Shown piece by piece: positions 3,846 through 27,206 of a stretch of DNA of 64,000 nt (positions are counted from its first letter, which is position 1; each line of letters starts with the position of its first letter). Source of the stretch: an uncultured Clostridia bacterium. GTDB taxonomy: Bacteria > Bacillota > Clostridia > Oscillospirales > Ruminococcaceae. Location: positions 21,220 through 85,219 of the forward strand of contig CAMZIK010000001.1 in NCBI GenBank assembly GCA_947307175.1. The letters run 5' to 3'. A program made the translations under genes and the position numbers. The notes below the pieces were generated by a model that was not told the origin of the DNA, ran no database searches, and worked only from the letters and a program-made list of their open reading frames with translations.

Positions 3846-3869
3846 TGAAATGAAGTTAGGAGAGATACT

Positions 3870-4952
3870 ATGAATGATGCTGCTGCACTTGAGCTGAAAG
3901 CTGTAAAGACAGCCGCTGAAAAAGAAAAGCCTGTCGTGGCATGGGGGTATAAGCATAACGGTTATTTTGCCCTCAAGCTTCTGCTGACCCTGTCGGGCTT
4001 TCTGATCGCAATTATCGTAAATATCACATTCCCTCAGAAAGCTGCTGTTGAGTTTAAGACCTATACGCTCAGCGTTTTCGGTCTCAATATCGACCTTACC
4101 ATAAACGATGCCTACATTTTTGTGCTGTTTGTCCTTATGCTCATCTATGGCGGCGCAGGCATAAGAGCGTTCTTTGTCAGGACAAGAAGAAAGCTGTACT
4201 GCAAGAACGCAGCCTTCCGCTTTGCGATCGGTATAGCTTTTGCCCTGTGGGACATCGGTGGAACGAAAATGCAGTGGTTTGCCCAGCCGTTTTTCCCAGG
4301 TCCTGCGCAGGTCATCGAAGCATACCTTGCCGACGGAGACTATGTTCTGCAAAACACGCTTTATTCTCTGAGACTCTATGCAGCAGGCTTCTCCTGCGGT
4401 GTTATCCTCGGAGTAGGTACGGGCATACTCATCGGCTGGTTCCCGAAAGTCTATTACTGGGTGTTCCCGGTGCTGAAGATAACAGGTGTCGTTCCGGCAG
4501 TTGCATGGATGCCGTTTGCACTTACGCTCCTGCCGAATTCATTCACCGCAGCGGTGTTCCTCATCGTTATCTGTGCGTGGTTCCAGATAGCTTTCCTCAC
4601 AGCGCAGGGTATCCAGTCAACACCAAAGCAGACCTATGAGGCAGCTCGTATACTCGGCAGCGGACAGCTCGGTCTGATAATCCATGTTGCTATACCGCAC
4701 GCTATGCCAAGCATCTTTACGGGCATCAGCTCGGCAAACGCAATGGCGTTCACAACGCTCGTAATGAGCGAGATGCTCGGTCAGCCCGGAGGACTCGGTT
4801 ACTATATCAACCAGTCAAAAGTCTGGAGCGCATACTACAAAGTGCTTGCAGCTATCGTAGTAATGGCAGTGCTTTTCTCGCTGATAAACCACTTTATCGG
4901 CATCATCAAAAAGCGCACTCTCAGGTGGCAGGAGGGAGTTCTGAAAAAATGA
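3870..4952 (+). CDS. ABC permease, SsuC/TauC family, with N-terminal membrane extension
   Basis: Multiple TM segments; EAA loop TYEAARILGSG...IHVAIPHAMPSIFTG. Confidence 0.88.
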   Translation: MNDAAALELKAVKTAAEKEKPVVAWGYKHNGYFALKLLLTLSGFLIAIIVNITFPQKAAVEFKTYTLSVFGLNIDLTINDAYIFVLFVLMLIYGGAGIRAFFVRTRRKLYCKNAAFRFAIGIAFALWDIGGTKMQWFAQPFFPGPAQVIEAYLADGDYVLQNTLYSLRLYAAGFSCGVILGVGTGILIGWFPKVYYWVFPVLKITGVVPAVAWMPFALTLLPNSFTAAVFLIVICAWFQIAFLTAQGIQSTPKQTYEAARILGSGQLGLIIHVAIPHAMPSIFTGISSANAMAFTTLVMSEMLGQPGGLGYYINQSKVWSAYYKVLAAIVVMAVLFSLINHFIGIIKKRTLRWQEGVLKK

Positions 4953-5728
4953 GCAGCAGTATAACCATTTCAGGTGTCAACCGTATATATACCGACACCG
5001 ACGGCAATAAGGTCGAGGCTCTGCACGATGTCGACCTTGAGATAAAGCCGGGGGAGTTCATATCGATAATCGGACCGTCAGGCTGCGGAAAGACAACGCT
5101 CCTGCGCCTTATCGCAGGGCTTGACAAGCCGCAGTCGGGAGAGCTTACGATAGATGACCGCAGGATAAAAGATGTCTCCACTGAGCGAGGCTATGTGTTC
5201 CAGCAGGGAGGTCTTTTCCCTTGGCTCACAGTCGAAAAGAATATCGCCTATGGCTTGAAGGCAAGAGGCGTTTTCAAGCGTGACAGGACAAAGGTAAAGG
5301 ACTATATCGAAATGGTCGGTCTTGAAGGCTTTGAGGGCGCATATCCACATCAGATCTCAGGTGGAATGGCGCAGAGAGTTGCTATCGCAAGGGCACTTAT
5401 CAACGACCCGAAGGCGCTTTTGCTCGATGAACCAATGGGAGCGCTGGATTCGTTCACCAGAGCCGACCTTCAGGATAAAATACTGGAACTGTGGAAGCGT
5501 GAAGGCACGACAATGATCCTTGTCACTCACGACATCGACGAGGCCATCTACCTCAGCGACCGCATAGTCATAATGACACCCAGACCAGGAAAGATCAGCA
5601 GCATCGTAAGTGTTGATCTTCCAAGACCACGCCATAGAGGCGGCACGGAATTTCTTGCACTGAGAAAGTCCATACTTGAATTTTTCGAGCTGGCACAGGC
5701 ACAGCCTCAGCCTGAATATATGATATGA
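4949..5728 (+). CDS. ABC ATPase, SsuB/TauB family
   Basis: Walker A GPSGCGKT, signature ISGGMAQR, Walker B LLLDEP, H-loop LVTHD. Ends PEYMI. ATG 4949 is the likely start. Confidence 0.92.
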   Translation: MSSSITISGVNRIYTDTDGNKVEALHDVDLEIKPGEFISIIGPSGCGKTTLLRLIAGLDKPQSGELTIDDRRIKDVSTERGYVFQQGGLFPWLTVEKNIAYGLKARGVFKRDRTKVKDYIEMVGLEGFEGAYPHQISGGMAQRVAIARALINDPKALLLDEPMGALDSFTRADLQDKILELWKREGTTMILVTHDIDEAIYLSDRIVIMTPRPGKISSIVSVDLPRPRHRGGTEFLALRKSILEFFELAQAQPQPEYMI

Positions 5729-5752
5729 TAGTTTTAAGGAGAGTAAAAGAAT

Positions 5753-6157
5753 ATGAAGAGATTGATTTTAGGTATCGCCGAGGCAATAGCAGCCCTTGTG
5801 CTTACAATAGGAGCGTTTACGTTCTTTAAGGCGTGCGGTGAACACGACGGTAAGTTTATGGCTTGCCACTGGGCACAGAACGCAGTTGTCCTTGTTGGCA
5901 TCGTGCTTACATTCCTTGCACTTGTGCGTATATTTATCCCCGAAGAGAAGATAAAAACAGGACTTGCGATAGGAGTTTTTGCGCTGTCCGTTTCTGTGAT
6001 CTTTATCCCAGGCACAGCGATAAACCTGTGCATGATGGACGATATGGCTTGCCATACGACATTCAAGCCTGCCGTGATAGTTGTTGCAGCTGTGACAGCA
6101 GTGATCGCTCTTGCTGATGTCATCGCAGGATATATAAAGGCAAAGGAATCAAAATGA
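5753..6157 (+). CDS. DUF4418-like small membrane protein with Cys/His motifs
   Basis: About four TM helices with ACGEHDGKFMACH and LCMMDDMACH motifs, upstream of a MacB-type permease/ATPase pair. Confidence 0.7.
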   Translation: MKRLILGIAEAIAALVLTIGAFTFFKACGEHDGKFMACHWAQNAVVLVGIVLTFLALVRIFIPEEKIKTGLAIGVFALSVSVIFIPGTAINLCMMDDMACHTTFKPAVIVVAAVTAVIALADVIAGYIKAKESK

Positions 6158-7356
6158 GCAGAAAAAAGCTGCTTTACCGCAGTATTGCAGGAAGACCGCT
6201 CAGGTCGTTATCCCTGATGTTCATATGTATCATAATGTCGGCGGTCGTATTCGGAGGAGCAGTTGTTTCCGCAAGTCTCAACAACGGGATAAACTGTCTT
6301 GAACAGCGTCTTGGTGCGGATATAATCGTTGTCCCCAAAAGCGCCTCCGAAAAGGTCGAACTTGAAAACATACTGCTTCAGGGTACGCCGGGGTATTTTT
6401 ATATGGACAAGTCTGTTGAGGATAAACTTTCTCAGACCGAGGGCGTAGATAAGCTGTCCGCACAGTATTTCCTTGTTTCCGCAAACGCAGAGTGCTGCAC
6501 CGTTCAGGTGCAGATAATCGGCTTTGATGATGATACTGATTTCTCAGTCAAGCCGTGGCTGAGCGAAGCATACAGCGGAAAGCTCGGACAGAATGAAATA
6601 GTTGTCGGCTCAGGACTCTCAACACGGGTAGGGCATACATTAAAGCTATACGGTGTTGAGTGCAAAACGGTCGGCAAGCTCGAATCAACAGGAACAGGAC
6701 TTGACACAGCGGTCTATACAACGAGCGATACTGTCAGAGGACTGATAAAAGCCGCAGGATCAAAGGGCATCTCCGTGCTTTCAAAGCAAAGCCCCGATGA
6801 TGTTATTTCCTCGGTCTATATAAAGGTCAAGGACGGATATGATATAGACGAGGTCGCTGCGAATATAAATCTCGGAATGGACGGCGTGCAGGCGGTGCGG
6901 ACAAAGTCGATGATAACAGGTACAGCCGATAAGCTGTCGGTCATCTCTTCAAGTGTAACGGTGCTTATCGCAGCAGTCTGGGTGCTGTCTGCAGTCATTA
7001 TGCTGATAGTCTTTGCAGCACTTGTGAATGAACGCAAAAGAGAATTTGCCGTTCTGCGTACAGTCGGCTTTTCAAGGCATCAGCTCGCAGGACAGATAAT
7101 GGCTGAAGCGGTCATCATCTGTTTTGCCGGAGCGATAACGGGAATAGCTGCCGCTGCGGCAGTCGTTTTCCCGTTCAGCAGGCTTATCGAAAGCAAGTCC
7201 GGTCTGCCGTTCCTCTCGCCTGATATACTGTCATCGCTTGGCTATGCTTTGATAGCATTTGTAGCAGTTATCGTGACAGGACCGCTCGCCTCGGTTTATT
7301 GCGCATACAGACTCAGCCGTGTCGATACGGGAAAGATACTCAGAGAAGGTGACTGA
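6154..7356 (+). CDS. FtsX/MacB-type ABC permease
   Basis: One N-terminal TM, extracytoplasmic domain (RLGADIIVVP, AECC), C-terminal ERKREFAVLRTVGF and three TMs. Confidence 0.85.
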   Translation: MSRKKLLYRSIAGRPLRSLSLMFICIIMSAVVFGGAVVSASLNNGINCLEQRLGADIIVVPKSASEKVELENILLQGTPGYFYMDKSVEDKLSQTEGVDKLSAQYFLVSANAECCTVQVQIIGFDDDTDFSVKPWLSEAYSGKLGQNEIVVGSGLSTRVGHTLKLYGVECKTVGKLESTGTGLDTAVYTTSDTVRGLIKAAGSKGISVLSKQSPDDVISSVYIKVKDGYDIDEVAANINLGMDGVQAVRTKSMITGTADKLSVISSSVTVLIAAVWVLSAVIMLIVFAALVNERKREFAVLRTVGFSRHQLAGQIMAEAVIICFAGAITGIAAAAAVVFPFSRLIESKSGLPFLSPDILSSLGYALIAFVAVIVTGPLASVYCAYRLSRVDTGKILREGD

Positions 7357-7360
7357 ATCC

Positions 7361-8041
7361 ATGCTTATTACAGCAAATAACATAACCAAAAGCTTTCGGC
7401 GCAAGGGCAGGGCAAAAAGTTCCGTTCAGATCCTGCAAAGCACAGATGTAAGCATACAAAGCGGTAATGTGTACGTTATCCTTGGACGATCAGGCAGCGG
7501 TAAAAGTACGCTGATAAATATCCTTTCAGGGCTGCTCTTGCCGTCAGGCGGAAGCGTTAAATATAATGATACCGATATTTACAGCCTCACCGACGGCGAG
7601 CTTTCACAGCTGCGCTGCAGGCGTGTAGGCTATATCCCGCAGGGACAGAGCGCAGTTGCAACACTGACCGTGAGGGAAAACGTCCTGCTGCCGTCTGCGG
7701 TCATAGGCGAGGGAAAAAGCTTTGCCAGAGCTGATGAGCTGCTAAAGCAGTTAGGTCTGAGCGAACTTGGTGATGCCAGCCCCACAGAGCTTTCGGGCGG
7801 AGAACTGCGCAGGCTTGCGATAGCAAGAGCGCTGATAAATTCACCCGAAGTTATATTTGCCGATGAGCCGACCAACGACCTTGACGAAGAAAACTCACGC
7901 CTCGTCTTTGAACAGCTGAAAAAAGCAGCCGAAAGCGGCGCAGCTGTTGTCATAGTTACACATGAGCTTTTTGCATACGAGTTTGCCGATACTGTCTACC
8001 GTATGCAAAGCGGAAGTCTGATAAGAGAGAAGGGTCAATAA
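7361..8041 (+). CDS. ABC ATPase (LolD/MacB type)
   Basis: GRSGSGKST, LSGGELRR, FADEPT, VTHE. ATG at 7361. Confidence 0.9.
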   Translation: MLITANNITKSFRRKGRAKSSVQILQSTDVSIQSGNVYVILGRSGSGKSTLINILSGLLLPSGGSVKYNDTDIYSLTDGELSQLRCRRVGYIPQGQSAVATLTVRENVLLPSAVIGEGKSFARADELLKQLGLSELGDASPTELSGGELRRLAIARALINSPEVIFADEPTNDLDEENSRLVFEQLKKAAESGAAVVIVTHELFAYEFADTVYRMQSGSLIREKGQ

Positions 8042-8042
8042 A

Positions 8043-8531
8043 ATGGTAATAAGAAGAGCGAAGATAAGCGATCTTGACGAGATAGCAAGCATAGAAAGCG
8101 TCTGTTTCCCACCCGATCAGGCGGCCGGCAGAAAGGCTTTTGAAGAGCGCCTTTCGACGTTCCCACGCCATTTTCTGCTGATGTGTGACGAGTACGGAAA
8201 GATTGTTTCTTTCATTGACGGCTTCACCACCGATCAGCCCGACCTAACTGATGAGATGTACGCTGTCTCAGAGCTTCACAATGAAAACGGAGCATGGCAG
8301 ATGGTGTTCGGTCTGTGTACGCTTCCTGATTACAGACAGAGAGGTTTTGCTCAAAGACTGCTCAAAGAGTTTATCAGAACGGCAAAGTCCGAGGGCAGAA
8401 AGGGAGTTGTCCTCACCTGCAAGCAGCCGCTTATCAAGTATTATGAAAAGTTCGGCTTTGTCAGCGAAGGCGTCACCGAAAACTCCGTCATCGGTGGAGT
8501 GCAGTGGTATCAGATGCGCAGAGTATTATAA
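8043..8531 (+). CDS. GNAT N-acetyltransferase
   Basis: Motif A LCTLPDYRQRGFAQRLL and YYEKFGF. Confidence 0.85.
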   Translation: MVIRRAKISDLDEIASIESVCFPPDQAAGRKAFEERLSTFPRHFLLMCDEYGKIVSFIDGFTTDQPDLTDEMYAVSELHNENGAWQMVFGLCTLPDYRQRGFAQRLLKEFIRTAKSEGRKGVVLTCKQPLIKYYEKFGFVSEGVTENSVIGGVQWYQMRRVL

Positions 8532-8548
8532 AAAAGAATGACTATTGT

Positions 8549-8589
8549 GACCTTGCCGCAGAGCTTCTTCTGCGTCAAGGTCTTTTTTC
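8549..8589 (+). terminator. Rho-independent terminator
   Basis: GACCTTG-CCGCAGA...TCTGCG-TCAAGGTC followed by TTTTTT. Confidence 0.75.
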
Positions 8590-8616
8590 TGCCCAAGAAA
8601 ATTAACAATTCCGACA

Positions 8617-8645
8617 TTGACAGCATTGAAACGATATGATAGAAT
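8617..8645 (+). promoter_or_regulatory. sigma70 promoter of the lacI-like gene
   Basis: TTGACA-17 nt-TAGAAT with extended TG. Confidence 0.8.
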
Positions 8646-8692
8646 ATCATAGTAATCTGATATGAAAACTATGTTTGGAAGGAGGCAGCATC

Positions 8693-9766
8693 ATGTCACT
8701 CAAGGAAATAGCGCAGATGACAGGGGTTTCCGTGTCAACGGTCGGAAGGATACTCAACGATCCCAAGCACAAATGCTCAAGTGATGATGTCCGCAGAAAA
8801 GTGCTTGAAGCGGCACGGCAGATAAACTATATACCCAATGCAAATGCACGCAATCTGAAATCAGGCGGCAGCAGAGGCGATGAGATATTCAGTATAAACA
8901 TTCTGCTCACAAGGTTTGCAAACGAGGCTGCCGACCCGTTCTACGATGAACTGCTCATGATGCTTGAAAAGGAGCTTCGTAACAGCGGCTGCATTATCGG
9001 TCATGTCTGGCACAGTGCAGAGTTTTCAGAGGAAAGACCCGGCAGAGCCGATAAGCTCGATGAGCTGATAGATGAGCTGTATAATGAAAAAGAGCATAGA
9101 TCTGACGGCCTTATAATCATAGGCAAGGTCACACGCAGAGCGCTGCGCAGGCTGAAGCTAAAAGAGAAAAACATCGTTTCTATTAACCGTAACTCTACAA
9201 ATTACGAGGTCGATGAGGTGCTTTGTGACGGAAGCAGGATCGCACACGATGCGGTCGCTTATCTTGCACGCCTGGGGCATACGAAGATAGGCTATGTCGG
9301 CGACTGCCACAATGAGTCACGCTTTACAGGCTATCAGGCAGCACTCGCAGACCTGCATTTAGTACCCGATCTCGATTATGTTTTCGATACAAAGCCCAAC
9401 GAGACAAACGGACTTATCGCAAGCGAGTATTTCAAAGGGCTTGCCGATCCGCCGACAGGCATATATTGTGCAAACGACATTCTTGCTATCGGCATGATAA
9501 AAGGATACAGCAAGCGCAGGCAAAAGGGGATCATGCCGTCTATAATTTCGAGTGATGATATCGACGCAGGACAGTATACAAAACCTATGCTGACAACGAT
9601 CTCACTTCCAAAGGCGGATATGGTCAGATTTGCGCTGATGCTGCTTCTGGACAGGATAAAGGGCGGTCACAAGATAGTATCACGGCTTGAGCTTGAAGGG
9701 ACGCTTATCATTCGTGAAAGCTGCCGCAATTACGGCGAAATGACCGAGCCTGAATACTACATCTGA
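8693..9766 (+). CDS. LacI/GalR-family transcriptional regulator
   Basis: HTH MSLKEIAQMTGVSVSTVGRILN, hinge YIPNANARNL, periplasmic-binding-fold core, IRESC. Ends PEYYI. ATG 8693 follows GGAGG. Confidence 0.93.
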   Translation: MSLKEIAQMTGVSVSTVGRILNDPKHKCSSDDVRRKVLEAARQINYIPNANARNLKSGGSRGDEIFSINILLTRFANEAADPFYDELLMMLEKELRNSGCIIGHVWHSAEFSEERPGRADKLDELIDELYNEKEHRSDGLIIIGKVTRRALRRLKLKEKNIVSINRNSTNYEVDEVLCDGSRIAHDAVAYLARLGHTKIGYVGDCHNESRFTGYQAALADLHLVPDLDYVFDTKPNETNGLIASEYFKGLADPPTGIYCANDILAIGMIKGYSKRRQKGIMPSIISSDDIDAGQYTKPMLTTISLPKADMVRFALMLLLDRIKGGHKIVSRLELEGTLIIRESCRNYGEMTEPEYYI

Positions 9767-9793
9767 CGAATTTTTATTGAATATGATATACTC

Positions 9794-10002
9794 GTGATAA
9801 CGATGTCATATCAAGGCATCAAGCACCTTATACGGCGCATTGCAGAATAGCTGGAACGGCCGTATATAAGACGTGACAACGTTATCACAAACCAAACGCT
9901 TTTAACTTATAATTTACATATGGGTTACTTTTTCTTCGTATGATCGCCCCTGATAACGCTGCAAACGGAAAGGTAATGCACATGCCGTGATAACGTTATC
10001 AC
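9794..10002. promoter_or_regulatory. Three LacI-type operators upstream of the mccB-mccA-nif-like operon
   Basis: 9794-9809 GTGATAACGATGTCAT, 9873-9888 GTGACAACGTTATCAC, 9987-10002 perfect palindrome GTGATAACGTTATCAC. A half-site TGATAACG lies at 9951. Confidence 0.85.
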
Positions 10003-10011
10003 ATATTGAGA

Positions 10012-10040
10012 TTGACTTGTACGAAGTTTTTGTTTATGAT
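10012..10040 (+). promoter_or_regulatory. sigma70 promoter of the mccB operon
   Basis: TTGACT-17 nt-TATGAT. Confidence 0.75.
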
Positions 10041-10086
10041 AATATCATAGCAAGCCGATAGGTAATATAGGAAAGGAAAGATAAAT

Positions 10087-11247
10087 ATGAGTTACAAAAG
10101 CATAGACACAGCCCTGATACACGGAGGAATATCAATAGATGAGCGCACAGGCGCAGTTAATGTCCCTATCTACCAGACCTCTACATTCAAGCAGGACGGT
10201 CTCGGAAAGATGAGAGGCTATGAATATTCCAGAACAGGCAACCCTACCCGTGAGGCGCTTGAGGCGCTTATCGCAGAGCTTGAAGGAGGCTATGCAGGAT
10301 TTGCCTTCGCAAGCGGTCTTGCAGCGGAAACAGCAGTCCTCAGCCTGCTTCATTCGGGCGACAGAGTGCTTATCTCGTCGAATGTCTACGGCGGAACGTT
10401 CAGATTGCTCAACAATGTCTTTGACCATTTTAATATAAACTATACTATCTCCGATACCGAGAACCCGGAAGCGTTTGAAAAGGACATCACACCTGATGTC
10501 AAGGCGGTGCTTCTTGAAAGCCCTGCAAACCCGCTGATGACTGTTACCGACATCAGAAAGATCGCCGAGATAGCCCACGCACACGACCTTCTCGTTATTG
10601 TGGACAACACATTCATGACACCTTATCTGCAAAGACCGATAGAACTTGGCGCAGACATCGTTGTCCACAGCGCAACTAAATATCTTGGCGGACACAGCGA
10701 TGTAGTTGCAGGTCTTGCAGTAACAAAGACCAGAGAGCTTGCCGAAAAGATAGCGTTCATTCAGAACTCCACAGGCGGCGTGCTCCCTCCGTTTGACAGC
10801 TTCCTGCTCATAAGAGGAATAAAGACGCTCGGCGTAAGACTTGACAGACACGTTTCAAACGCTCAGGCAGCCGCAAAGTTCCTCTCCGAACACAGCGCAG
10901 TCAAGAGCGTGCATTATCCAGGACTTCCGACAGACAAGGGATATGAAGTCAACAGACAGCAGGCAAAGAACGGCGGCGTGATGATCTCCTTTGAGCTTAA
11001 AGACGGCTATGATATAGAAAAGTTCTTTGAAAGTCTCCAGCTTGTAACGCTTGCCGAGAGCCTCGGCGGAGTAGAGTCGCTCGTGTGCCACCCTTCTACA
11101 ATGACCCACGCATCTATCCCCGAGGAGATACGCAAAAAAGTCGGCATAACCGACGGACTGATAAGACTTTCGATAGGCATCGAAGACATCGATGATATTC
11201 TTACCGACATCGAGCAGGCTATAAACAATAGTAAGACGGAGAGGTAA
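10087..11247 (+). CDS. mccB: Cystathionine gamma-lyase (MccB/YrhB-like)
   Basis: YEYSRTGNPTR, VVHSATKYLGGHSD and AESLGGVESL motifs; adjacent to an MccA-like gene. Confidence 0.8.
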   Translation: MSYKSIDTALIHGGISIDERTGAVNVPIYQTSTFKQDGLGKMRGYEYSRTGNPTREALEALIAELEGGYAGFAFASGLAAETAVLSLLHSGDRVLISSNVYGGTFRLLNNVFDHFNINYTISDTENPEAFEKDITPDVKAVLLESPANPLMTVTDIRKIAEIAHAHDLLVIVDNTFMTPYLQRPIELGADIVVHSATKYLGGHSDVVAGLAVTKTRELAEKIAFIQNSTGGVLPPFDSFLLIRGIKTLGVRLDRHVSNAQAAAKFLSEHSAVKSVHYPGLPTDKGYEVNRQQAKNGGVMISFELKDGYDIEKFFESLQLVTLAESLGGVESLVCHPSTMTHASIPEEIRKKVGITDGLIRLSIGIEDIDDILTDIEQAINNSKTER

Positions 11248-11252
11248 TTAAA

Positions 11253-12158
11253 ATGCTTTATGAGAATATGCATAAGCTCATCGGCAATACGCCGCTGGTC
11301 GAGCTGGTAAATATGGGGGTCTCCCCCAATGTACACATCTTTGCAAAACTTGAAATGTATAACCCTTCGGGCAGCGTCAAGGACCGCATAGGCGAGTATA
11401 TGATAGCAGCCGCAGAGAAAGAGGGAAGACTTAAAAAAGGCGGTACGATAATCGAAGCTACCGCAGGCAATACGGGACTTGGCATCGCATTTGCGGCGCT
11501 GGGAAAATACAGAGTCATTTTTACAGTCCCGACTAAATTCTCCGCAGAAAAGCAGTCTCTTATGCGTGCGCTGGGTGCAGAGGTAATAAACACTCCGAGA
11601 GCAGAAGGAATGCTCGGCGCAGTAAGAAAAGCAGAAGAGCTGAAAGCACAGATACCCGGTTCTATTTCGCTGGAGCAGTTCAAGAACCCAAACAACCCGC
11701 TTGCTCATTATGAAACAACAGGCAGGGAGATCTGGGAGGATATCGGCGGAAAGGTGACACACCTTGTAGCAGGCGCAGGCAGCGGCGGAACATATACTGG
11801 CATCGTAAAGTATCTCAAAGAGCAGGATCCCAATGTTCAGGGCGTGCTTGCAGACCCAGAAGGCTCAACTATCGGCGGCGGAGAGCATTTTGATTACAAC
11901 ATTGAAGGCATAGGAAATGATTTTATACCCGATACAATGGATATAGGTCTTGTCGATAAGGTCGTCAAGGTAAACGATGATGAGGCATTCTCAACAGTTC
12001 GTGACCTTGCAAGGAACGAAGGCATCATCGCAGGCTCGTCATCGGGCGCAGCGATGGCAGCAGCCCTGAAGCTTGCAAAGACTCTCGACAGCGGAAACAT
12101 AGTAGTTGTGTTCCCCGACAGAGGAGACAGATATTTTAGTACGGGACTTTTTGGATAA
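11253..12158 (+). CDS. mccA: O-acetylserine-dependent cystathionine beta-synthase (MccA/YrhA-like, CysK/CysM family)
   Basis: SGSVKDR, EATAGNTG (not TSGNT), GAGSGGT and IEGIGNDF (not IQGIGAG) are characteristic of the MccA branch. Confidence 0.78.
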   Translation: MLYENMHKLIGNTPLVELVNMGVSPNVHIFAKLEMYNPSGSVKDRIGEYMIAAAEKEGRLKKGGTIIEATAGNTGLGIAFAALGKYRVIFTVPTKFSAEKQSLMRALGAEVINTPRAEGMLGAVRKAEELKAQIPGSISLEQFKNPNNPLAHYETTGREIWEDIGGKVTHLVAGAGSGGTYTGIVKYLKEQDPNVQGVLADPEGSTIGGGEHFDYNIEGIGNDFIPDTMDIGLVDKVVKVNDDEAFSTVRDLARNEGIIAGSSSGAAMAAALKLAKTLDSGNIVVVFPDRGDRYFSTGLFG

Positions 12159-12167
12159 GGTGATATA

Positions 12168-12539
12168 GTGAAATATCTGATAGCATTTGCAAGCTCCGAC
12201 GGAGCAAACATCGACAGGCATTTCGGAGCTGCCGAAAGATTTTATATAGCGCAGCTCGATACCGAAAAAGAGGATTGCGACATAACGGGATACCGTGATG
12301 TTACGCCTGCCTGCAGCGGCGGCGGACACGAGCTTTCCGCATTTGATGCGATACTCAATACACTTGCCGGAGTGTCTGCGATAGTTGCACAGCGTGTCGG
12401 TTACGGTGCACAGGACTTCATTTCGCAAAAAGGTATCGCCGTGTACCAGATGCCGCTTCAGATAGAGCAGGCGATATGTCTGCTCATGGAAGAAAAACAA
12501 TGGGAGGTTGACAAATGGCTATCTCATACGAAGAGCTGA
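12168..12539 (+). CDS. NifX/NifB-C-terminal-like (FeMo-cofactor biosynthesis family) protein
   Basis: IAFASSDG..IDRHFGAAERF and AQRVGYGA motifs. Confidence 0.85.
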   Translation: MKYLIAFASSDGANIDRHFGAAERFYIAQLDTEKEDCDITGYRDVTPACSGGGHELSAFDAILNTLAGVSAIVAQRVGYGAQDFISQKGIAVYQMPLQIEQAICLLMEEKQWEVDKWLSHTKS

Positions 12540-13396
12540 CGACAAAGCACCCATGCTTTGCACGAGGCGAACAAAGCAACAACGGACGAATACATCTACC
12601 AATAAGTCCGAGCTGTAATATCGAGTGTAAATTCTGCGAGCGCAGTTTTAACAGCTATGAGGTAAGACCGGGCGTGAGCCGCACGGTCATCACACCGCAG
12701 GAAGCGATAGATGCGATACGCAGAGCGCTGGAATTCTGTCCCGACATCAAAGTCGCAGGAATAGCAGGACCGGGAGATACACTTGCAAGCCCTTTCGCAC
12801 TTGAAACGTTCAGGCTTATCAAAAAAGAGTTCCCGAACCTCGTTAAGTGCATGAGCACAAACGGGCTTCTGCTTGCCGAAAAGGCGCAGGAGGTAATAGA
12901 TGTAGGCATCGACTCGCTGACCGTTACCGTCAATGCGGTAGACCCTGAGATCGAAGCACAGCTCAATGATGGTATCTACTGGCATGGAGAGCATATCACA
13001 GGAGTCGAAGCTGCAAAGATACTTATAGAGCAGCAGCTCAAAGGCATAAAGCTCGTCAGCGATGCAGGCATAACACTGAAAGTAAATACCGTGCTTGTAC
13101 CCGACATCAATGCAGACCATATCGAAACGATAGCAAAAACAGTTGCCGAAGCAGGAGCGAGCATCTATAACATCATTCCGCTTATCCCTCAGCACAAGCT
13201 CAAAGACAGCAGAGAGCCTGACTGTATGGAGCGTGAAAGAGCAATACTAAAAGCTTCAAAATACATAGATGTTTTCAGGCATTGTCAGAGATGCCGTGCC
13301 GACGCAGTCGGGATACCAGGCGGAGAAGATTTCGGCGACAGGATATATCTTGACCTGCAAAGGCTTTCAAGAAAAGATACATTTTCACACGGTTAA
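12515..13396 (+). CDS. nifB: NifB-type radical SAM protein (MarB-like; no fused NifX domain)
   Basis: HPC, CNIECKFC (CxxxCxxC), EVRP, AGPGD, TNG and CQRCRADAVG are all NifB motifs. Confidence 0.9.
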   Translation: MAISYEELTTKHPCFARGEQSNNGRIHLPISPSCNIECKFCERSFNSYEVRPGVSRTVITPQEAIDAIRRALEFCPDIKVAGIAGPGDTLASPFALETFRLIKKEFPNLVKCMSTNGLLLAEKAQEVIDVGIDSLTVTVNAVDPEIEAQLNDGIYWHGEHITGVEAAKILIEQQLKGIKLVSDAGITLKVNTVLVPDINADHIETIAKTVAEAGASIYNIIPLIPQHKLKDSREPDCMERERAILKASKYIDVFRHCQRCRADAVGIPGGEDFGDRIYLDLQRLSRKDTFSHG

Positions 13397-13413
13397 TAAA
13401 TTTATGGAGGTAA

Positions 13414-14277
<864 letters not shown>

Positions 14278-14294
14278 TAGTAGGAGAGTGCTTT

Positions 14295-15761: not shown

Positions 15762-15773
15762 AGGTGAATATAC

Positions 15774-17114: not shown

Positions 17115-17170
17115 AACAAAAAAGCTGCCGTTTTTCTGCGGCAGCTTATGCTTTAAAAGGAGATGATATT

Positions 17171-17503
17171 ATGCCGAAAGTAGCAGTTGCTACAAGTGAC
17201 GGGTTTGAGGTCAACGAGCATTTCGGTCACGCAAAGTTTTTCCGTGTCTACGAGCTTGGAGAAAGTGATTATACTTTTCTTGACGTCCGTGATGCAGTCG
17301 CAGTCTGCCAGCATAGCTTGGGTCATAACACGACCAGATTTGACAAGATAATCGAGCTGCTTTCCGATTGCGATGCCCTGCTCGTTCAGAAGATAGGGGA
17401 GGGCGCAGCCGCATATCTGATACAGAAAAATGTCAGAGTCTTTGAGGTCAGCGGCAGCATAGATGCAGTCCTGAAAAAGTTCATTGCAGACAAAATACTA
17501 TGA
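17171..17503 (+). CDS. Second NifX-like protein
   Basis: VAVATSDG..VNEHFGHAKFF and KIGEGA motifs. Confidence 0.85.
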   Translation: MPKVAVATSDGFEVNEHFGHAKFFRVYELGESDYTFLDVRDAVAVCQHSLGHNTTRFDKIIELLSDCDALLVQKIGEGAAAYLIQKNVRVFEVSGSIDAVLKKFIADKIL

Positions 17504-17546
17504 AAAAATAAGAGCGTTGTTCGTTTTGACAGCGCTCTTTTTTTAT
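17504..17546. terminator. Bidirectional terminator between convergent operons
   Basis: A-run, AAGAGCGTTGT...ACAGCGCTCTT, T-run. Confidence 0.75.
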
Positions 17547-18449
17547 TCAGAATTCATAAGGGGTGATCTGATATACGAAGTAATTCAGCCAGTTTGTAAA
17601 CAGCACATTTGATGCGCTCAGCCAGCGGCTCACAGGCTCTTTGTCGGGATCGTCATCAGGGAAGTAGTTCTTTGGTATCTGTGGAGAAAGCCCTTTGTCA
17701 GTATCACGGATATACTCCTCCGCAAGCCTGTACAGATCATATTCTGGGTGACCGTTGACAAATACGTTGCCTGAATCATCGACTACGATATAAACGCCAG
17801 TTTCATCTGAATCCGCAACTATGGTCAGTTTGTCATTGTTTATAATGTCCTCTTTATTTATGCCAGTATATCTTGAATGAGGAGCAAAAAAGTTTTTATC
17901 CAAGCCTCGCACAAGTTCGCTGCCGCTGTCGATAACAGTATGCTCAAATATACCCGAAAGCTTTTTGTCAAGCTCAAACTTCTGCACACCGTAATGGTAG
18001 TAAAGACCTGCCTGCGCAGCCCAGCACAGATAAAGAGTCGAGGTGACGTGCAGCCTGCTCCATTCAAAAATGGAGGATAGCTCGCCCCAGTAGTCAACGT
18101 CCTCATATTCCAGCTTTTCAACAGGCGCACCTGTGATTATAAGTCCGTCAAAGTATTGGTGCTCGATCTGATAAAACGGCTGGTAGTTATTGAGCAGATA
18201 TGATGCAGGTGTATTTTTGTATTGATGAGTCACGAGCCTGATAAACGTGACCTCTATCTGCAAAGGTGAATTTGAAAGCAGTCTTAAAAGCTGAAGCTCA
18301 GTGTTCTGCTTGTCGGGCATCAGATTCAGCACAGCTATCTTCAGCTGTCTTATGTCCTGATGCTGCGCACGTTCTTCCGTCATCGCAAATATATTCTCTT
18401 TTTGCAGTTTTTCTATGACCGGTAAGGTCTCTTTAAGTCGTAATGGCAT
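17547..18449 (-). CDS. metA: Homoserine O-acetyltransferase, MetA family
   Basis: LNLMP, DGLIITGAPVE (Glu here indicates acetyl-CoA preference), CWAAQA, PHSRY and GHPEY. Confidence 0.92.
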   Translation of the reverse strand: MPLRLKETLPVIEKLQKENIFAMTEERAQHQDIRQLKIAVLNLMPDKQNTELQLLRLLSNSPLQIEVTFIRLVTHQYKNTPASYLLNNYQPFYQIEHQYFDGLIITGAPVEKLEYEDVDYWGELSSIFEWSRLHVTSTLYLCWAAQAGLYYHYGVQKFELDKKLSGIFEHTVIDSGSELVRGLDKNFFAPHSRYTGINKEDIINNDKLTIVADSDETGVYIVVDDSGNVFVNGHPEYDLYRLAEEYIRDTDKGLSPQIPKNYFPDDDPDKEPVSRWLSASNVLFTNWLNYFVYQITPYEF

Positions 18450-18465
18450 CTGTCTTTCCTCCCGC

Positions 18466-18915
18466 CTAAATGTAGTACATATAATCCTTCTGCTTGCCTG
18501 AGCTTTCCTTGTAGTCTTTTATAAGGTCTTCAAGCGTCATATTCTCTGTGAAGCGGCGCATATAGCTGTTGAAGTTTGACCAAAGACAGTTATTGACCGA
18601 TGTTCGTATGTCTACTGCCTGCTGGTCATCTGCTTCATAAGTGTTTGCGAGAATATTATTGTCAAGAGCGTTGAGAATATCACAAAGCAGTATCCTGTTT
18701 GCAGGACGTGAGAGCTGGTATCCGCCGTGAATGCCTTTTTGTCCCTTGACAAACTTGCCCTGACGAAGACCGAGCAGTATCTGTTCAAGATACTTGTGAG
18801 AGATATTCTGCCTGTCAGCTATTTCAGATGAACGCACTACCTGTCCGTTCTCGGAATACAGCGCAATATCCGTAAGCACTACGATGCCCAGTTCGACCTT
18901 TGTTGTGATCTTCAT
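18466..18915 (-). CDS. Rrf2-family regulator, CymR-like (no Cys triad; C-terminus DYMYYI)
   Basis: SEIADRQNISHKYLEQILLGLR...KGIHGGYQL wHTH. The tail resembles the B. subtilis CymR C-terminus. Confidence 0.85.
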   Translation of the reverse strand: MKITTKVELGIVVLTDIALYSENGQVVRSSEIADRQNISHKYLEQILLGLRQGKFVKGQKGIHGGYQLSRPANRILLCDILNALDNNILANTYEADDQQAVDIRTSVNNCLWSNFNSYMRRFTENMTLEDLIKDYKESSGKQKDYMYYI

Positions 18916-18935
18916 TTTAAACTTCTCCCTTCGTC

Positions 18936-19364
18936 TTACTTATTTTCATCAAGCAGCTTCTCCATCGTGTTCCAGCTCAGAAGCGCACATTTTACTCTTG
19001 CAGGCATTTTTGAAACGTGCTGCAAAGCGCCTGCTTCCTCCAGTTCTTCAAGCTCATCATCGGTTATCTCACCGCTTATCATCTTTCTGAAAAGCTCCGT
19101 GTAATGCCTTGCCTCATCGAGAGTCTTTCCTATGATAAGCTCCAGCATGATGTCCGAGCTTGCCTGCGAGATCGCACACCCAAGCCCTGTGAATGAGCCG
19201 TTTGTGATAACGCCGTCGTGTATGTCCAGATGCAGCTCTATATTGTCGCCGCAGGTCGGGTTCAGTCCCTTGCAGCAATGCGTTGCGCAGGGCAGCTCAT
19301 GCCTGTGCAAAGGGTGCAGATTGTGGTCGGCAAGCACCTCGCCGTAAAAGCTGTCAGTCGTCAT
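18936..19364 (-). CDS. sufU: SufU sulfur-transfer/scaffold protein
   Basis: NPTCGD, GCAISQAS and RVKCA. Confidence 0.93.
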   Translation of the reverse strand: MTTDSFYGEVLADHNLHPLHRHELPCATHCCKGLNPTCGDNIELHLDIHDGVITNGSFTGLGCAISQASSDIMLELIIGKTLDEARHYTELFRKMISGEITDDELEELEEAGALQHVSKMPARVKCALLSWNTMEKLLDENK

Positions 19365-20577
19365 AGCCCATTCTCCTTCTTATCGAACCGAGCGTTCCGA
19401 TGAAGCGCTCTATGTCCTTTTCGTCATTATAAAATGCAAGGCTCATTCTTGCTGTTGACTGCACCTCAAGGAACTGATGCAGCGGCTGTGCGCAGTGATG
19501 TCCTGCACGAATATCTACTCCGTCAGCATCGAATATCGCTGCGATGTCGTGCGGGTGAACGCCGTCAACCGTGAATGTCAGTATCCCGTGGTGATCGGTG
19601 GGGTCATCAGCACCTATGATGTTCACGTGCGGAACTTTTTTCATCTCGCTGAAAGCCAGAGCCGTCAGCTCGTCCTCACGCTTTTGTATCGCATCAAAAC
19701 CAAGCTCTGTGATGTAATCTATCGCAGCCGCAAGTCCGACAGCACCGCCAACGTTGACCGTTCCTGCCTCAAATTTGTGCGGAAGCTCTGCATATGTCGC
19801 ATCTTCACGTGTGACGTATTCTATCATCTCACCGCCCGAAAGGAACGGCGGCATTTTTTCGAGCAGAGCCTGCTTTGCATAAAGCACTCCTATGCCCATC
19901 GGCGCAAGCATCTTGTGACCCGAAAAAGCCAGAAAATCAACATCAAGCTCCTGTACATCAACAGGGATATGCGGAACGCTCTGCGCACCGTCACAAACTA
20001 TCAGCGTGCCGTTTTCGTGAGCGATCTGTGCAAATTCCTTTATCGGATTGAGCCTGCCGAATACGTTTGAGATCTGTGCGATCGCAAACAGCTTTGTTTT
20101 TGGTGTGAGTGCTTTTCTGAGCGCATCAGCGGTGTATTTTCCCGTCCTGTCACATTCAAGGAAATTAAGCTTTGCACCCTTTTGTTTACACAGTATCTGC
20201 CATGGCAGAAGGTCAGAGTGATGCTCTGAAACTGCGACAAGTATATCGTCGCCTTCGCTTATGTTTGCCTGTCCCCAGCTGAAAGCGATAAGGTTAAGGC
20301 TCTCAGTTGCGTTGCGTGTAAAAATAATCTCCTTTGTGCTTTTTGCACCGATAAATCTCCTTACGCTCTCCCTTGCATTTTCGTAAGCCTCTGTTGCCTT
20401 GACGCTCAGGTCGTAAAGCCCACGCAGGGGATTAGCATTTTCCTCGTTGTAGTATTTCACCGCAGCGTCTATCACCCGTTTTGGCTTTTGCTGCGTAGCG
20501 GAGTTGTCAAGATAAACAAGCTCCTTGTATTTATCAAACACGGGGAAATTCTCTTTCCCCAGCAGTTTTTCATTCAT
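19354..20577 (-). CDS. sufS: Cysteine desulfurase SufS
   Basis: YLDNSATQQKP, FSGHKM and RAGHHCAQP. Confidence 0.95.
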   Translation of the reverse strand: MNEKLLGKENFPVFDKYKELVYLDNSATQQKPKRVIDAAVKYYNEENANPLRGLYDLSVKATEAYENARESVRRFIGAKSTKEIIFTRNATESLNLIAFSWGQANISEGDDILVAVSEHHSDLLPWQILCKQKGAKLNFLECDRTGKYTADALRKALTPKTKLFAIAQISNVFGRLNPIKEFAQIAHENGTLIVCDGAQSVPHIPVDVQELDVDFLAFSGHKMLAPMGIGVLYAKQALLEKMPPFLSGGEMIEYVTREDATYAELPHKFEAGTVNVGGAVGLAAAIDYITELGFDAIQKREDELTALAFSEMKKVPHVNIIGADDPTDHHGILTFTVDGVHPHDIAAIFDADGVDIRAGHHCAQPLHQFLEVQSTARMSLAFYNDEKDIERFIGTLGSIRRRMGYDD

Positions 20578-21451: not shown

Positions 21452-21456
21452 TTAAC

Positions 21457-22866: not shown

Positions 22867-22870
22867 CTGC

Positions 22871-23614: not shown

Positions 23615-23625
23615 TTTTTATCCTC

Positions 23626-24375
23626 CTAAATATGCATAGCATCATATGTATTGATATATTGCAGCGTCGGAATGAACACCGCATCATGCCTCTGACCTTC
23701 AAATACCCTTTCTCCTGCCTTGAAGACCAGCAGCTGAGCTGTCGGAACATCTTCCCAATGGGTATCGTCAAGCGCCGTTGTCGCAAAAACATATCCCGAA
23801 CCGTACCTGCGGTATTTCATCGTCTGCTTCATGTTCTTGTGAACGTATAGAAGTTCACCGTCAAAGATCATAAGATTGAGCTTGTTTCTCGGCGATAGCT
23901 CCCTGACGAGCCTGTCGATAAGCTCGCATCGCTTTTGTTCGTCAAGACCGCCCTGCTCCTGCGCCTCGTCCAGCAGCTGCATCAGATACAGAAACAGCCT
24001 TTCTGAGTCCGTGCCGCCTGACTGCTGACTCATAAAAGGTATCAGCCTGCTTGCCGAGTAGATCGTGCCGTTATGTATCAGCGTCCAAGTCCGACCCGTG
24101 ATGTCTTGTGAACGGAAGGGGTGGCAGTTCTCGTCTTTGATCGTGCCTACCGTGGCAAATCGTATGTGCCCCAGAAAGTCCTTCTGCGGCTCCAGCTTTT
24201 CGATCAGTCCCGAAAGCCTGTCGCTGAGGTCTGCTCTCTCGCAGCTTTTGTATATCTTGTCGCCGTCCATAAGTCCCCAGCCGTGAGGGTTGTCTTTCCC
24301 GTGGGAAAAGAACTCACGCACAAGCGGTTTTATATCCGTCGGCTCTTTGCTTGAAAAGCCCAGCAGTTCACACAT
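23626..24375 (-). CDS. Class II glutamine amidotransferase (YafJ/EgtC/Dug3-like)
   Basis: N-terminal MCEL nucleophile, NPHGWG, HIRFAT, NCHPF, HNGT and TDSE. Ends YDAMHI. Confidence 0.88.
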   Translation of the reverse strand: MCELLGFSSKEPTDIKPLVREFFSHGKDNPHGWGLMDGDKIYKSCERADLSDRLSGLIEKLEPQKDFLGHIRFATVGTIKDENCHPFRSQDITGRTWTLIHNGTIYSASRLIPFMSQQSGGTDSERLFLYLMQLLDEAQEQGGLDEQKRCELIDRLVRELSPRNKLNLMIFDGELLYVHKNMKQTMKYRRYGSGYVFATTALDDTHWEDVPTAQLLVFKAGERVFEGQRHDAVFIPTLQYINTYDAMHI

Positions 24376-24573: not shown

Positions 24574-24727
24574 ATTGTATCACACAAATCCTACTATGTC
24601 AATATGAATAGCAGGATTTAATAGTTTGTTTATGCTTTTTATCAAATCCTACAATAGTGGTAGGACAATAGTGTTTTTTCTTTGTGGAATATTTCCTATT
24701 GACTTTATAGGAATTATGCTGTATAAT
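24574..24727. promoter_or_regulatory. Divergent sigma70 promoters (GATase-suf and metY-cysK) with Rrf2-type boxes TCCTAY-N7-RTAGGA
   Basis: Minus promoter TTGACA(24602-24597)-17-TACAAT; plus promoter TTGACT(24699)-17-TATAAT(24722). Boxes at 24589-24607 (one mismatch), 24647-24665 and 24694-24712 (both perfect). Confidence 0.82.
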
Positions 24728-24850
24728 CATATTAAACCGATAGGAAATAGGAGCTGCCGCAGAACAGTAAGCTTCAAATCAAAAAGCTGTATGAAACTTC
24801 GGCGGAATAAAAGAAAACACAATACCATATTATAAAAAGGAAGTGCTGAT

Positions 24851-24916
24851 ATGACAATACGTTTTACAGAGCTTGACCGCAGTAACTACCGATTCGGACG
24901 AATGTTTGTCTGTTGA
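24851..24916 (+). CDS. Putative 21-aa leader peptide MTIRFTELDRSNYRFGRMFVC
   Basis: RBS AAAGGAAG upstream; lies in the metY leader; ends Met-Phe-Val-Cys. Confidence 0.45.
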   Translation: MTIRFTELDRSNYRFGRMFVC

Positions 24917-24976
24917 AGCTTGATAATAAGAAACCACCACAACAATAAACATTTGATTTGAAAAGGAGTAAATACT

Positions 24977-26257
24977 ATGAGCAACTATAAATTTGAAACC
25001 TTACAGCTTCACGTAGGACAGGAGCAGGCAGACCCTGCAACAGATTCAAGAGCAGTACCTATCTACCAGACAACATCTTATGTCTTCCACAATTCCGAGC
25101 ATGCAGCAGCACGCTTTGGTCTTGCAGACGCAGGAAACATCTACGGCAGACTTACCAACTCCACACAGGACGTTCTCGAAAAGAGAGTAGCAGCCCTTGA
25201 AGGCGGCGTTGCAGCTCTTGCAGTAGCATCAGGCGCAGCAGCTATCAGCTATGCTATCGAGGCTCTCGCAGGCAAGGGCGAGCATATCGTTGCACAGAAA
25301 ACTATCTACGGCGGCAGCTTCAACCTGCTCGCACATACACTTCCTCTCTACGGCATCGAAACAACATTTGTTGATATACATAACCTTGACGAAGTAAAGG
25401 CAGCTGTCAAGCCGAACACAAAGGCAATCTTCATCGAAACACTCGGCAACCCAGGCAGCGACATTCCTGACATCGAGGCACTGGCTGAGATAGCACATTC
25501 AAATGGTATCCCGCTTGTTATCGACAACACATTCGGTACACCTTACCTTATCAAGCCTATCGAGCTTGGCGCTGACATCGTTGTTCATTCTGCGACCAAG
25601 TTCCTCGGCGGACACGGAACAACTCTCGGCGGCGTTATCATTGATTCTGGCAAGTTCAACTGGACACCTGAGAAGTTCCCGAACATCGCAGCACCAAACC
25701 CAAGCTATCACGGCGTTTCATTTACCGCCGCAGCAGGTGCAGCAGCTTATGTGACCTACATCAGAGCTATCCTTCTGCGAGACACAGGCGCAGCGATCTC
25801 TCCGTTCAATGCGTTCCTGCTGCTTCAGGGCATCGAGACACTGTCACTCAGACTTGAAAGACACGCAGAAAATACAAAGAAAGTTGTTGAATACCTCTCA
25901 AAACACCCATTGGTAGAAAAGGTGAACCACCCGTCGCTGCCTGACCACCCACAGCACGACCTCTATGAAAAATACTTCAAGAACGGCGGCGGCTCGATCT
26001 TCACCTTTGACATCAAGGGCGGCAAAGAAGAAGCATGGAAGTTCATCGATGCACTCAAGATCTTCTCGCTTCTCGCAAACGTAGCAGACGTTAAGTCGCT
26101 CGTTATCCACCCTGCATCAACAACACATTCACAGCTTTCCGATGAGGAGCTGACCGATACCGGCATCAACCAGAACACAATCAGACTTTCAATAGGCACA
26201 GAGCATATCGACGATATTATTGCAGACCTTGAAAACGGTTTTGCAGCTATCAAATAA
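24977..26257 (+). CDS. metY: O-acetylhomoserine sulfhydrylase
   Basis: [26 protein letters not shown] and [19 protein letters not shown]. Confidence 0.93.
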
Positions 26258-26273
26258 AAAAGGAGAGATAACT

Positions 26274-27206
26274 ATGGCTAACATCTATAAGGGAACACTC
26301 GGACTCATCGGAAATACTCCTCTCGTTGAGATCGTAAACGTTGAAAAGGAGCTTTCGCTGGAAGCAACAGTCCTGGCAAAGCTTGAATATTTCAATCCCG
26401 CAGGAAGCGTAAAGGACAGGATAGCAAAGGCTATGATAGAAAAGGCAGAGCAGAACGGTCTGCTCAAAGAAGGCTCTGTTATCATTGAGCCTACATCAGG
26501 CAACACAGGTATCGGTCTTGCTTCTATCGCAGCAGCAAAGGGCTACCGCATAATCATCACAATGCCTGAGACCATGAGCGTTGAGCGCAGAAATATCCTT
26601 CGTTCCTATGGCGCAGAGATCGTCCTCACCGACGGCTCAAAGGGAATGAAGGGAGCTATCGCAAAGGCTGAGGAGCTTTCCAAGGAGATAGAGAACAGCT
26701 TTATCCCAGGACAGTTTATAAATCCTGCAAACCCTGAGATACACAAGGCTACCACAGGTCCTGAGATCTGGAACGACACCGACGGAAATGTAGACATCTT
26801 CATCGCAGGTGTCGGCACAGGCGGAACAGTAAGCGGCGTGGGCGCATTCCTCAAGGAGAAGAATCCAAATGTCAAGGTCGTAGCCGTTGAGCCTGAAAGC
26901 TCACCAGTTCTTTCAAAGGGTACAGCTGGCTCGCATAAGATCCAGGGTATCGGCGCAGGCTTTGTTCCTGATGTACTTGATACCAATATCTACGATGAAG
27001 TGCTTCCTGTTGCAAATGATGATGCTTTTGCAAAAGCAAAGCTGCTTGCAAAGAAAGAGGGCATCTCAGTAGGTATCTCCTCAGGTGCAGCTCTGCACGC
27101 AGCTATCGTGCTTGCACAGCGTCCTGAGAACAAGGGCAAGACTATCGTAGCACTGCTGCCTGACAGCGGAGACAGATATTATTCAACAGCACTTTTCACA
27201 GAATAA
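26274..27206 (+). CDS. cysK: Cysteine synthase A
   Basis: [24 protein letters not shown] and [13 protein letters not shown] at 26274. Confidence 0.95.

Follow-up and report, generated by a model that had tools for sequence, protein, structure and literature searches.

Why should several unrelated proteins encoded within one block of sulfur genes end in nearly the same short peptide, a terminal isoleucine with a tyrosine two positions before it? This question is raised by a stretch of 64,000 nucleotides (hereafter the window) from an uncultured Clostridia bacterium of the Ruminococcaceae, located on contig C1 of genome G000 (3.59 Mb in 319 contigs; completeness 99.8%, contamination 3.37%). A C-terminal Ile tail entering CysK is known for CysE, CymR, CdiA-CT, and the pair EGL-9/CYSL-1, and an earlier note on this DNA had assigned the endings found here to the same kind. 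Based on the data described below, we consider it likely that the tails of an ABC importer ATPase, a LacI-family regulator, a Mar-type Fe protein, and an Rrf2-family regulator represent short linear motifs for docking on CysK, their occupancy following the sulfur status. The four tails are conserved and match the crystallographically defined tails of CysE and CymR, in agreement with the assignment made in that note.

The C-termini of the window were re-read by a six-frame open reading frame call, which reproduced all five Ile endings reported before. The first one belongs to an SsuB/TauB-like ATPase (NitT/TauT family; Pfam ABC_tran) of an ABC importer (4925-5728, plus strand), ending in ...QPEYMI, with PEYMI encoded at 5711-5725 on an extension of ~13 residues past the ATPase fold; its best NCBIfam match, SaoA, stops aligning at residue 254 of 267. 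The LacI-family regulator (8675-9766, plus strand) ends in ...EPEYYI, with PEYYI (9749-9763) on a likewise ~13-residue extension after the Peripla_BP_3 domain, the end of which is residue 350 of 363. For the NifH-type Fe protein of the Mar-like (nitrogenase-like) system (13420-14277, plus strand; ...EADYRI), ADYRI is encoded at 14260-14274 and extends ~10 residues past the NifH fold, Pfam Fer4_NifH ending at residue 276 of 285 and the Clostridium pasteurianum NifH structure 1cp2 stopping at query residue 274. The Rrf2-family regulator (18466-18915, minus strand; ...DYMYYI) is devoid of the three-Cys Fe-S motif and carries YMYYI at 18469-18483, with Pfam Rrf2 ending at residue 134 of 149. Domain models stop 9-15 residues before the C-terminus in the tailed proteins, suggesting that the motif sits on a flexible extension outside the folded domain.

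Four of the five tails are of the Y-x-I type, the fifth is not. This one belongs to a class II amidotransferase-like protein (Pfam GATase_4; 23626-24375, minus strand; ...YDAMHI), previously counted as a carrier, whose DAMHI end places a Met and no aromatic residue at position -2. Its relatives comprise one protein from 201 genomes of the order, one from a metagenome scan, and two from Fe-protein loci; the tail is retained by no more than three close relatives, as seen at 71% and 51% identity (DAMHI, DAMNI), and gone at 40% and 38%. Owing to the small number of relatives and the loss at 38-40% identity, we do not count this tail as established.

Is such an ending exceptional within the genome? 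Among the 3104 coding sequences (CDSs) of our own gene call on the whole genome, 193 (6.2%) end in Ile and 4.6% carry a Tyr at -2, so that ~9 Y-x-I ends are expected by chance. This expectation is one point in favor of explaining the shared endings by coincidence or by non-functional shared ancestry. We observed 18 Y-x-I ends, plus one copy missed by the gene caller. Ten of them are sulfur-linked (one CysE-like protein, three Rrf2 regulators, two Fe proteins, two LacI regulators, and two ABC ATPases), with the duplicates among these originating from contigs C46 and C142. The ~9 remaining proteins are unrelated, e.g., RlmN and a phosphate transporter, and their number equals the chance expectation; the whole excess is made up of sulfur-linked proteins. 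Within the sulfur block, 5 of 32 CDSs end in Y-x-I compared with 13 of 3072 elsewhere (Fisher p = 7e-7, for a block that was picked post hoc), and in accordance with the earlier note none of the CDSs from 32145 to 63601 does so. Inside their own families, the tails are confined to the sulfur-linked members: 2 of the 54 ABC ATPase CDSs listed (the SsuB-like one and a MetN-like one ending in TGGGGI), 2 of 4 LacI regulators, and 2 of 4 NifH-like proteins. The SsuB-like ATPase has a further copy on C46 that escaped the gene caller and hence is not among the 54; its ending is the same.

While the five tails of the original list are real, that list turned out to be too short, omitting a CysE-like serine acetyltransferase encoded just upstream of the window (...WFYII), a second tailed Rrf2 regulator, and a MetN-like ATPase with a G-x-G-I end. 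These three, encoded elsewhere in the genome, are members of the same motif set. An Rrf2 regulator at G000 C18:952-1377 (locus L005) possesses the three-Cys Fe-S motif together with a tail of the CysE kind, ...EYDYII. The MetN-type ATPase (G000 C4:48153-48941, corresponding to L094:5154-5942) comprises 262 amino acids ending in TGGGGI and forms part of a metNIQ operon, next to a PatB C-S lyase. As the match covers only positions 2-241 of the 343-position MetN model, this ATPase is devoid of the C2/NIL trans-inhibition domain. A G-x-G-I ending on the same ATPase type was additionally seen in L025, L026, L029, L030, L037, L054, L086, L090, and L110.

The stronger test lies in the orthologues, the alignment of which had been proposed in the earlier note. 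Tails are kept in the orthologues of the ABC ATPase, the LacI regulator, and the Fe protein. For each of the three, the best 120 homologues of a protein search were evaluated; for the Fe protein, a second sample was drawn from species genomes, consisting of 77 orthologues in 80 loci of Ruminococcus, Oscillospiraceae, Lachnospiraceae, Selenomonas, Megamonas, Ruminiclostridium, Treponema, and Bacteroidales. These genomes are of four phyla, with orthologues from Clostridia, Negativicutes, Treponema, and Bacteroidales. The LacI orthologues end in (P)EY[YF]I in 118/120 cases down to an identity of 52%, and the ABC ATPases in PEYxI in 118/120 (64-100% identity) with a free x position. Fe proteins from the protein search (86-98% identity) carry Y-x-I in 116/120 cases, mostly as [DN]-Y-x-I, and those from the species genomes (78-99% identity) end in Ile in 74/77, mostly as DDYxI, with Y-x-I in 70/77. 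Across the three families, the terminal Ile is kept in 118-119 and the Tyr at -2 in 116-118 of 120 orthologues. Isolates of Ruminococcus albus and Selenomonas ruminantium are among the bearers of tailed orthologues. Positions 0 and -2 show an entropy of approximately zero in all three families, as does position -3 in the LacI regulator and the ABC ATPase. For the position in between (-1), values of 1.6-2.9 bits were obtained with the Fe protein and the ABC ATPase; the LacI linker (positions -6 to -12) reaches 1.5-3.3 bits. The control proteins NifD, NifK, CysK, MccB, and NifX from the same 80 loci gave 2.4-3.8 bits for their last five residues.

On the level of codons, the Fe-protein genes encode the terminal Ile by ATT (37), ATC (21), and ATA (12) and the Tyr by TAT (38) and TAC (32), and all three stop codons are in use. 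The Ile, Tyr, and stop codons thus exchange freely with their synonyms, from which it follows that the target of selection is the peptide and not the DNA; at the protein level, purifying selection on the motif is strong. A constraint on the last Fe-protein codons by an RNA element or an overlapping start was also considered. The gene downstream of the Fe protein differs between loci (NifD, CysK, SufS, an ABC gene, or NifX) while the tail stays; together with the synonymous variation of the codons, this led us to reject such a constraint.

These data leave hardly any room for coincidence. In its favor, apart from the ~9 chance ends per genome, it can be noted that the sulfur block was chosen post hoc and that many homologues are close relatives. 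Tyr and Ile are nevertheless near-invariant down to 52% identity while neighboring residues and synonymous codons vary, and the control proteins of the loci show no comparable C-terminal conservation, except for a radical-SAM protein with a motif of its own. We rejected the chance explanation on the conservation, codon, and control-protein evidence and regard it as extremely improbable. A further point against it is that at least 15 changes of the tail state are required across ABC ATPase lineages.

This latter number was obtained from a tree of the ABC ATPases built without their last 15 residues. The tail state requires at least 15 changes on it, a rough count because the FastTree tree has no support values, compared with a mean of 32.5 and a minimum of 26 for shuffled labels. 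The ATPases encoded beside Mar-like clusters belong to several lineages with 30-90% identity to the one of the window, and 32 of 47 end in Ile, in the form of PEYxI, [DE]-Y-x-I, EVVI, or G-[DEAG]-G-I, the latter being the enterobacterial CysE-type ending. Among 150 representatives of the family (50% clustering), 14 end in Ile (p = 7e-15 for 32/47 versus 14/150) and 6 in aromatic-x-I. Distant LacI orthologues (52-58% identity) adjoin sulfatase, arylsulfotransferase, or Mar genes, and the ATPases neighboring them end in EAEYTI, EIEYLI, or TGGEGI. The tail has been gained repeatedly, in unrelated families as well as in separate ABC ATPase lineages. In all cases checked, tails were found together with sulfur genes, while the converse fails, as exemplified by P0366. 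ABC ATPases of some Lachnospiraceae and others end in EYYL, EFYL, or SYYL (L062, L067, L070, L073, L076, L105), with the Fe protein of these loci retaining its Ile. Further tailed neighbors of Mar-like clusters are cysteine-desulfidase-like SDH_alpha proteins, which end in NEYII or YEYII, a response regulator of the AraC type with the end DYTYQI, and an AMP-binding enzyme with PDYTI, with coordinates L083:10676-11962, L088:11545-12813, L013:17198-18238, and L068:3615-4958 for this group.

Which receptor would such a tail enter? A comparison is provided by Staphylococcus aureus CysK, for which crystal structures and surface plasmon resonance data with CysE and CymR decapeptides are available (preprint 10.1101/2024.09.19.614015). 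The same work reports dissociation constants (KD) of 9 uM for the CysE peptide ...QDDYII and 25 nM for the CymR peptide ...GYMFYI, as well as competition between the peptides and O-acetylserine (OAS). T73, N76, T77, and Q145 bond the carboxylate of the peptide Ile, and a channel formed by M124, I128, F146, A227, and F229 takes up the aromatic residue at -2, with additional contacts from loop 4 (10.1101/2024.09.19.614015). The Fe-protein consensus DDYxI equals the S. aureus CysE ending DDYII at 4/5 positions, and the YMYYI of the window Rrf2 equals the CymR ending YMFYI at 4/5 positions. On the receptor side, the canonical CysK that had been recognized at 26274 (26274-27206, plus strand) is borne out by TIGR01139 with 447.9 bits against an equivalog cut-off of 350.95. 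This CysK, the proposed receptor of the tails, retains the equivalents of the S. aureus contacts, namely T74, N77, T78, Q147, M125, I129, F148, and the QGIGAGF loop, and the solved structures nearest to it include peptide-bound CysK entries.

Genetic linkage points in the same direction. A CysK-family gene lies within 10 kb of the tailed Fe protein in 43/80 loci, with a CysK of canonical signature heading the operon in 18 loci, and in one unrelated genome an ATPase ending in ...DDYMI is directly followed by a canonical CysK (59% identity). Modeling of CysK with tail peptides, which had also been proposed, gave a divided outcome. For the 18-residue Fe-protein tail together with CysK, the complex prediction reached a score of 0.40, compared with 0.02 for the best control, which the tool itself grades as weak; the full-length pair scored 0.01. 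In the predicted peptide complex, tail residues 281-285 contact CysK residues 74-78, 97-98, 124-125, 128, 147, 181-182, and 220-229, corresponding to the crystallographic site.

The prediction does not distinguish between members of the CysK family, as stated by the tool, a point in favor of a rival explanation: the tails might dock on a CysK-family paralogue and not on the biosynthetic CysK. Candidates are the MccA-like protein of the window (11253-12158, plus strand), a third paralogue on C102, and, in other taxa, a divergent paralogue intervening between the Fe protein and MarD. G000 has at least three CysK-family paralogues. The MccA-like protein can be placed only at the level of the cysKM subfamily (345.1 against a cut-off of 344.15; TIGR01139 337.8, under the cut-off of 350.95) and had been suggested as an expected non-binder. 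It keeps the carboxylate-binding loop and the pocket (TAGNT/M/V/Q/F), so that it may be an unsafe negative control. In 22/80 loci, the gene lying immediately after that of the tailed Fe protein and before MarD encodes a divergent member of the CysK superfamily that scores under all NCBIfam cut-offs; these loci include L042, L046, L049, L050, L053, L056, L058, L059, L061, and L062 plus 12 more. Such a paralogue may function as a dedicated receptor, or else as an enzyme that fixes thiols. Docking on a paralogue would have a parallel in C. elegans, where the CysK homologue CYSL-1 has become a sensor. Several observations speak against a paralogue: none follows the Fe protein in the window itself, the operon starts with a CysK of canonical signature in the 18 loci mentioned above, and the tails resemble peptides measured on true CysK enzymes. 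The divergent paralogues moreover alter the residues of the aromatic channel (F/I-V/Q/C-T-V-L instead of M/I/Q/F). We consider docking on a paralogue unlikely.

An even smaller probability is assigned to the possibility that the tails serve another purpose altogether, be it as a degron, as a motif for another cytosolic receptor, or through look-alike intramolecular contacts. C-terminal hydrophobic motifs are among the signals of bacterial proteases and their adaptors, and the full-length complex prediction without signal would fit such a role as well. The same motif is found, however, on six or more unrelated folds, among them a CysE-like protein and a CymR-like regulator from families with tails known to bind CysK, which argues for one shared receptor. 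An intramolecular role is at odds with the position of the motif on variable linkers past the folded domains. In addition, no other gene family co-occurs across the loci as CysK-family genes do. On balance, a purpose other than CysK-family docking seems rather improbable to us.

Returning to docking on CysK itself, a mechanism can be outlined that remains a proposal in all its steps. The motif consists of an acidic residue, a Tyr at -2, any residue at -1, and a terminal Ile with its free carboxylate. The latter would be held by the TSGNT loop and Gln147 of CysK, and the Tyr would occupy the M125/I129/F148 channel. As known for the cysteine synthase complex and for CymR-CysK, the sulfur status would determine how far CysK is occupied by the tails. 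Under sulfur-replete conditions, with OAS being low and sulfide available, dimeric CysK would retain its dimeric partners by their paired tails; under sulfur shortage, OAS would build up and compete the tails out of CysK. The CysK-bound state would restrain the nucleotide-binding domains of the importer, act as a protein co-repressor for the LacI and Rrf2 regulators, and sequester or block the Fe protein, thereby withholding it from MarDK. Sulfur limitation would consequently turn on uptake, transcription, and C-S bond reduction together. A repressive direction of the control by CysK seems most likely to us.

Several points weigh against this picture and concern the tails, the receptor, and the sign of control. 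Tail-less Fe proteins occur in L041, L043, and L063, all being sulfur clusters holding CysK-family genes, and ATPases without a tail or with a Leu end (EYYL) are likewise found in sulfur clusters with CysK-family genes; P0366 has a sulfur context yet ends in SYYL. The existence of such copies shows that the tail is not obligatory. The homologue lists are composed mostly of related rumen and gut organisms and hence represent non-independent samples. As for the receptor, linkage to CysK genes is equally expected from shared metabolism alone, and the score of the peptide prediction may reflect a memory of solved CysK-peptide complexes. The near-zero score of the full-length CysK and Fe protein pair also has to be counted here, although the tool declares itself uninformative for small interfaces. 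The binding loop is also preserved in the MccA-like protein and in the third paralogue, so that CysK is not singled out as the receptor. Finally, the direction of regulation is purely what we infer. CysE and CdiA-CT are activated by CysK, not inhibited, and control of the opposite sign is possible for that reason.

The genes surrounding the tailed proteins fit a sulfur-scavenging context. The importer additionally comprises a substrate-binding protein of the SsuA/NMT1 family (2753-3811, plus strand; Pfam NMT1, NCBIfam SsuA_fam) and a permease (3870-4952, plus strand; Pfam BPD_transp_1). Downstream of the Fe protein, a MarD-like (14274-15761, plus strand) and a MarK-like catalytic subunit (15774-17114, plus strand) are encoded. 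Among solved structures, the MarD-like subunit is best matched by 9fmg_A and 9d9u_A, chains of the methylthio-alkane reductase of R. rubrum (E = 4.5e-133), compared with ~1e-37 to 1e-39 for NifD. The Fe protein resembles clostridial NifH (1cp2, E = 1e-138) far more than it does the MarH of R. rubrum (9fmg_D, E = 1.9e-82). A radical-SAM gene is present in the same cluster as both; its MarB-like product (12515-13396) ends in ...TFSHG, and the FSHG end was found in 62/62 orthologues (loci L011-L090). A second Rrf2 regulator of the window (27257-27736, plus strand) possesses the three-Cys motif and ends in ...ETKAKQK without an Ile tail, thus providing an internal contrast. A separate nitrogenase-like cluster (G000 C26:7818-14139) contains two NifH-like paralogues (48-50% identity), neither of them with an Ile tail. 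Furthermore, C46:10000-20450 (L098) and C142:1-7385 (L097) constitute a second collinear copy of window positions 2609-20208 at 80-88% nucleotide identity. It has the same tails as the window and is probably a co-binned related strain, not a duplication.

What would follow if the tails bind CysK? Described partners of CysK are few (CysE, CymR, one contact-dependent growth inhibition toxin, and nematode EGL-9), and within the literature searched we found no description of an ABC importer ATPase, a LacI regulator, or a nitrogenase-type Fe protein as carrier of a CysK tail, in line with the earlier note, which knew of no such partners. A biosynthetic enzyme would then be a general post-translational switch for the sulfur status, the sulfur counterpart of PII. 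The sequence data suggest for a rumen bacterium that CysK would respond to the sulfur supply by switching the uptake of sulfur, the control of genes, and an enzyme of the nitrogenase-like kind, which would also offer a candidate for the rapid switch-off of sulfur-scavenging nitrogenase-like systems. A wider generalization, to which we give about even chances, is that CysK, or CysK paralogues of Mar operons, might serve as a PII-like sulfur hub in gut and rumen anaerobes, gating its targets via repeatedly evolved tails. Such a hub would read OAS and sulfide in its active site. Its direct targets would be at least two ABC importers (SsuB-like and MetN-like), regulators of the LacI and Rrf2 families, and, in the nitrogenase-like C-S reductase, the Fe protein; cysteine desulfidase-like and other enzymes may be gated too. 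In practical terms, conserved C-terminal [DE]-Y-x-I or G-x-G-I motifs could then serve as a simple rule for annotating sulfur-regulated proteins across thousands of genomes. For Mar systems, a 2026 review of nitrogenase-like enzymes names MarS alone for post-translational control and states that the way in which sulfur status reaches Mar regulation is unknown.

Among known systems, the closest ones include the cysteine synthase complex, in which CysE likewise presents a C-terminal Ile with a free carboxylate on a flexible tail preceded by aromatic or acidic residues; the four carriers discussed here differ in not being serine acetyltransferases. Similarity also exists to the CymR-CysK complex of Bacillus subtilis and S. 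aureus, since the window Rrf2 has no Fe-S cysteines, ends in YMYYI versus YMFYI, and is located among sulfur genes. By its tail it is a member of the CymR kind. With 84 bits against a cut-off of 195 for the CymR model NF047409 (alignment over 1-139 of 139 positions), it is no CymR orthologue by that model, for which the tail-less Rrf2 at 27257-27736 reaches 128 bits. A LacI-family regulator with such a tail has no counterpart described. The pairs CdiA-CT(UPEC536)-CysK and EGL-9-CYSL-1 are comparable in that unrelated proteins acquired a CysE-like Ile tail for a CysK homologue, yet these are a toxin and an animal prolyl hydroxylase, whereas several housekeeping sulfur-acquisition proteins of one genome are concerned here.

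The activity of ABC importers is known to be set via the C-terminal end of the ATPase or by a cytosolic domain, as in the C2 trans-inhibition of MetN and the action of EIIA-Glc on MalK, and the STAS domain of the plant transporter SULTR1;2 interacts with cysteine synthase. Here, no regulatory domain is present, but a motif of 5 residues. CcpA in complex with HPr(Ser-P) is likewise a LacI-family regulator with a protein co-effector, but HPr binds to the CcpA core and no C-terminal tail is involved. In nitrogenase-type enzymes, MarS and NifI act post-translationally on MarDK or NifDK. In contrast to NifI1/I2, DraT/DraG, and MarS, the sensor proposed here would be a pyridoxal phosphate enzyme, the signal OAS/sulfide, and the target the tail of the Fe protein versus the catalytic component. 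In its overall layout, the arrangement would resemble PII (GlnB/GlnK), as a single small sensor would follow the nutrient status and gate a transporter together with transcription factors and an enzyme of the nitrogenase type.

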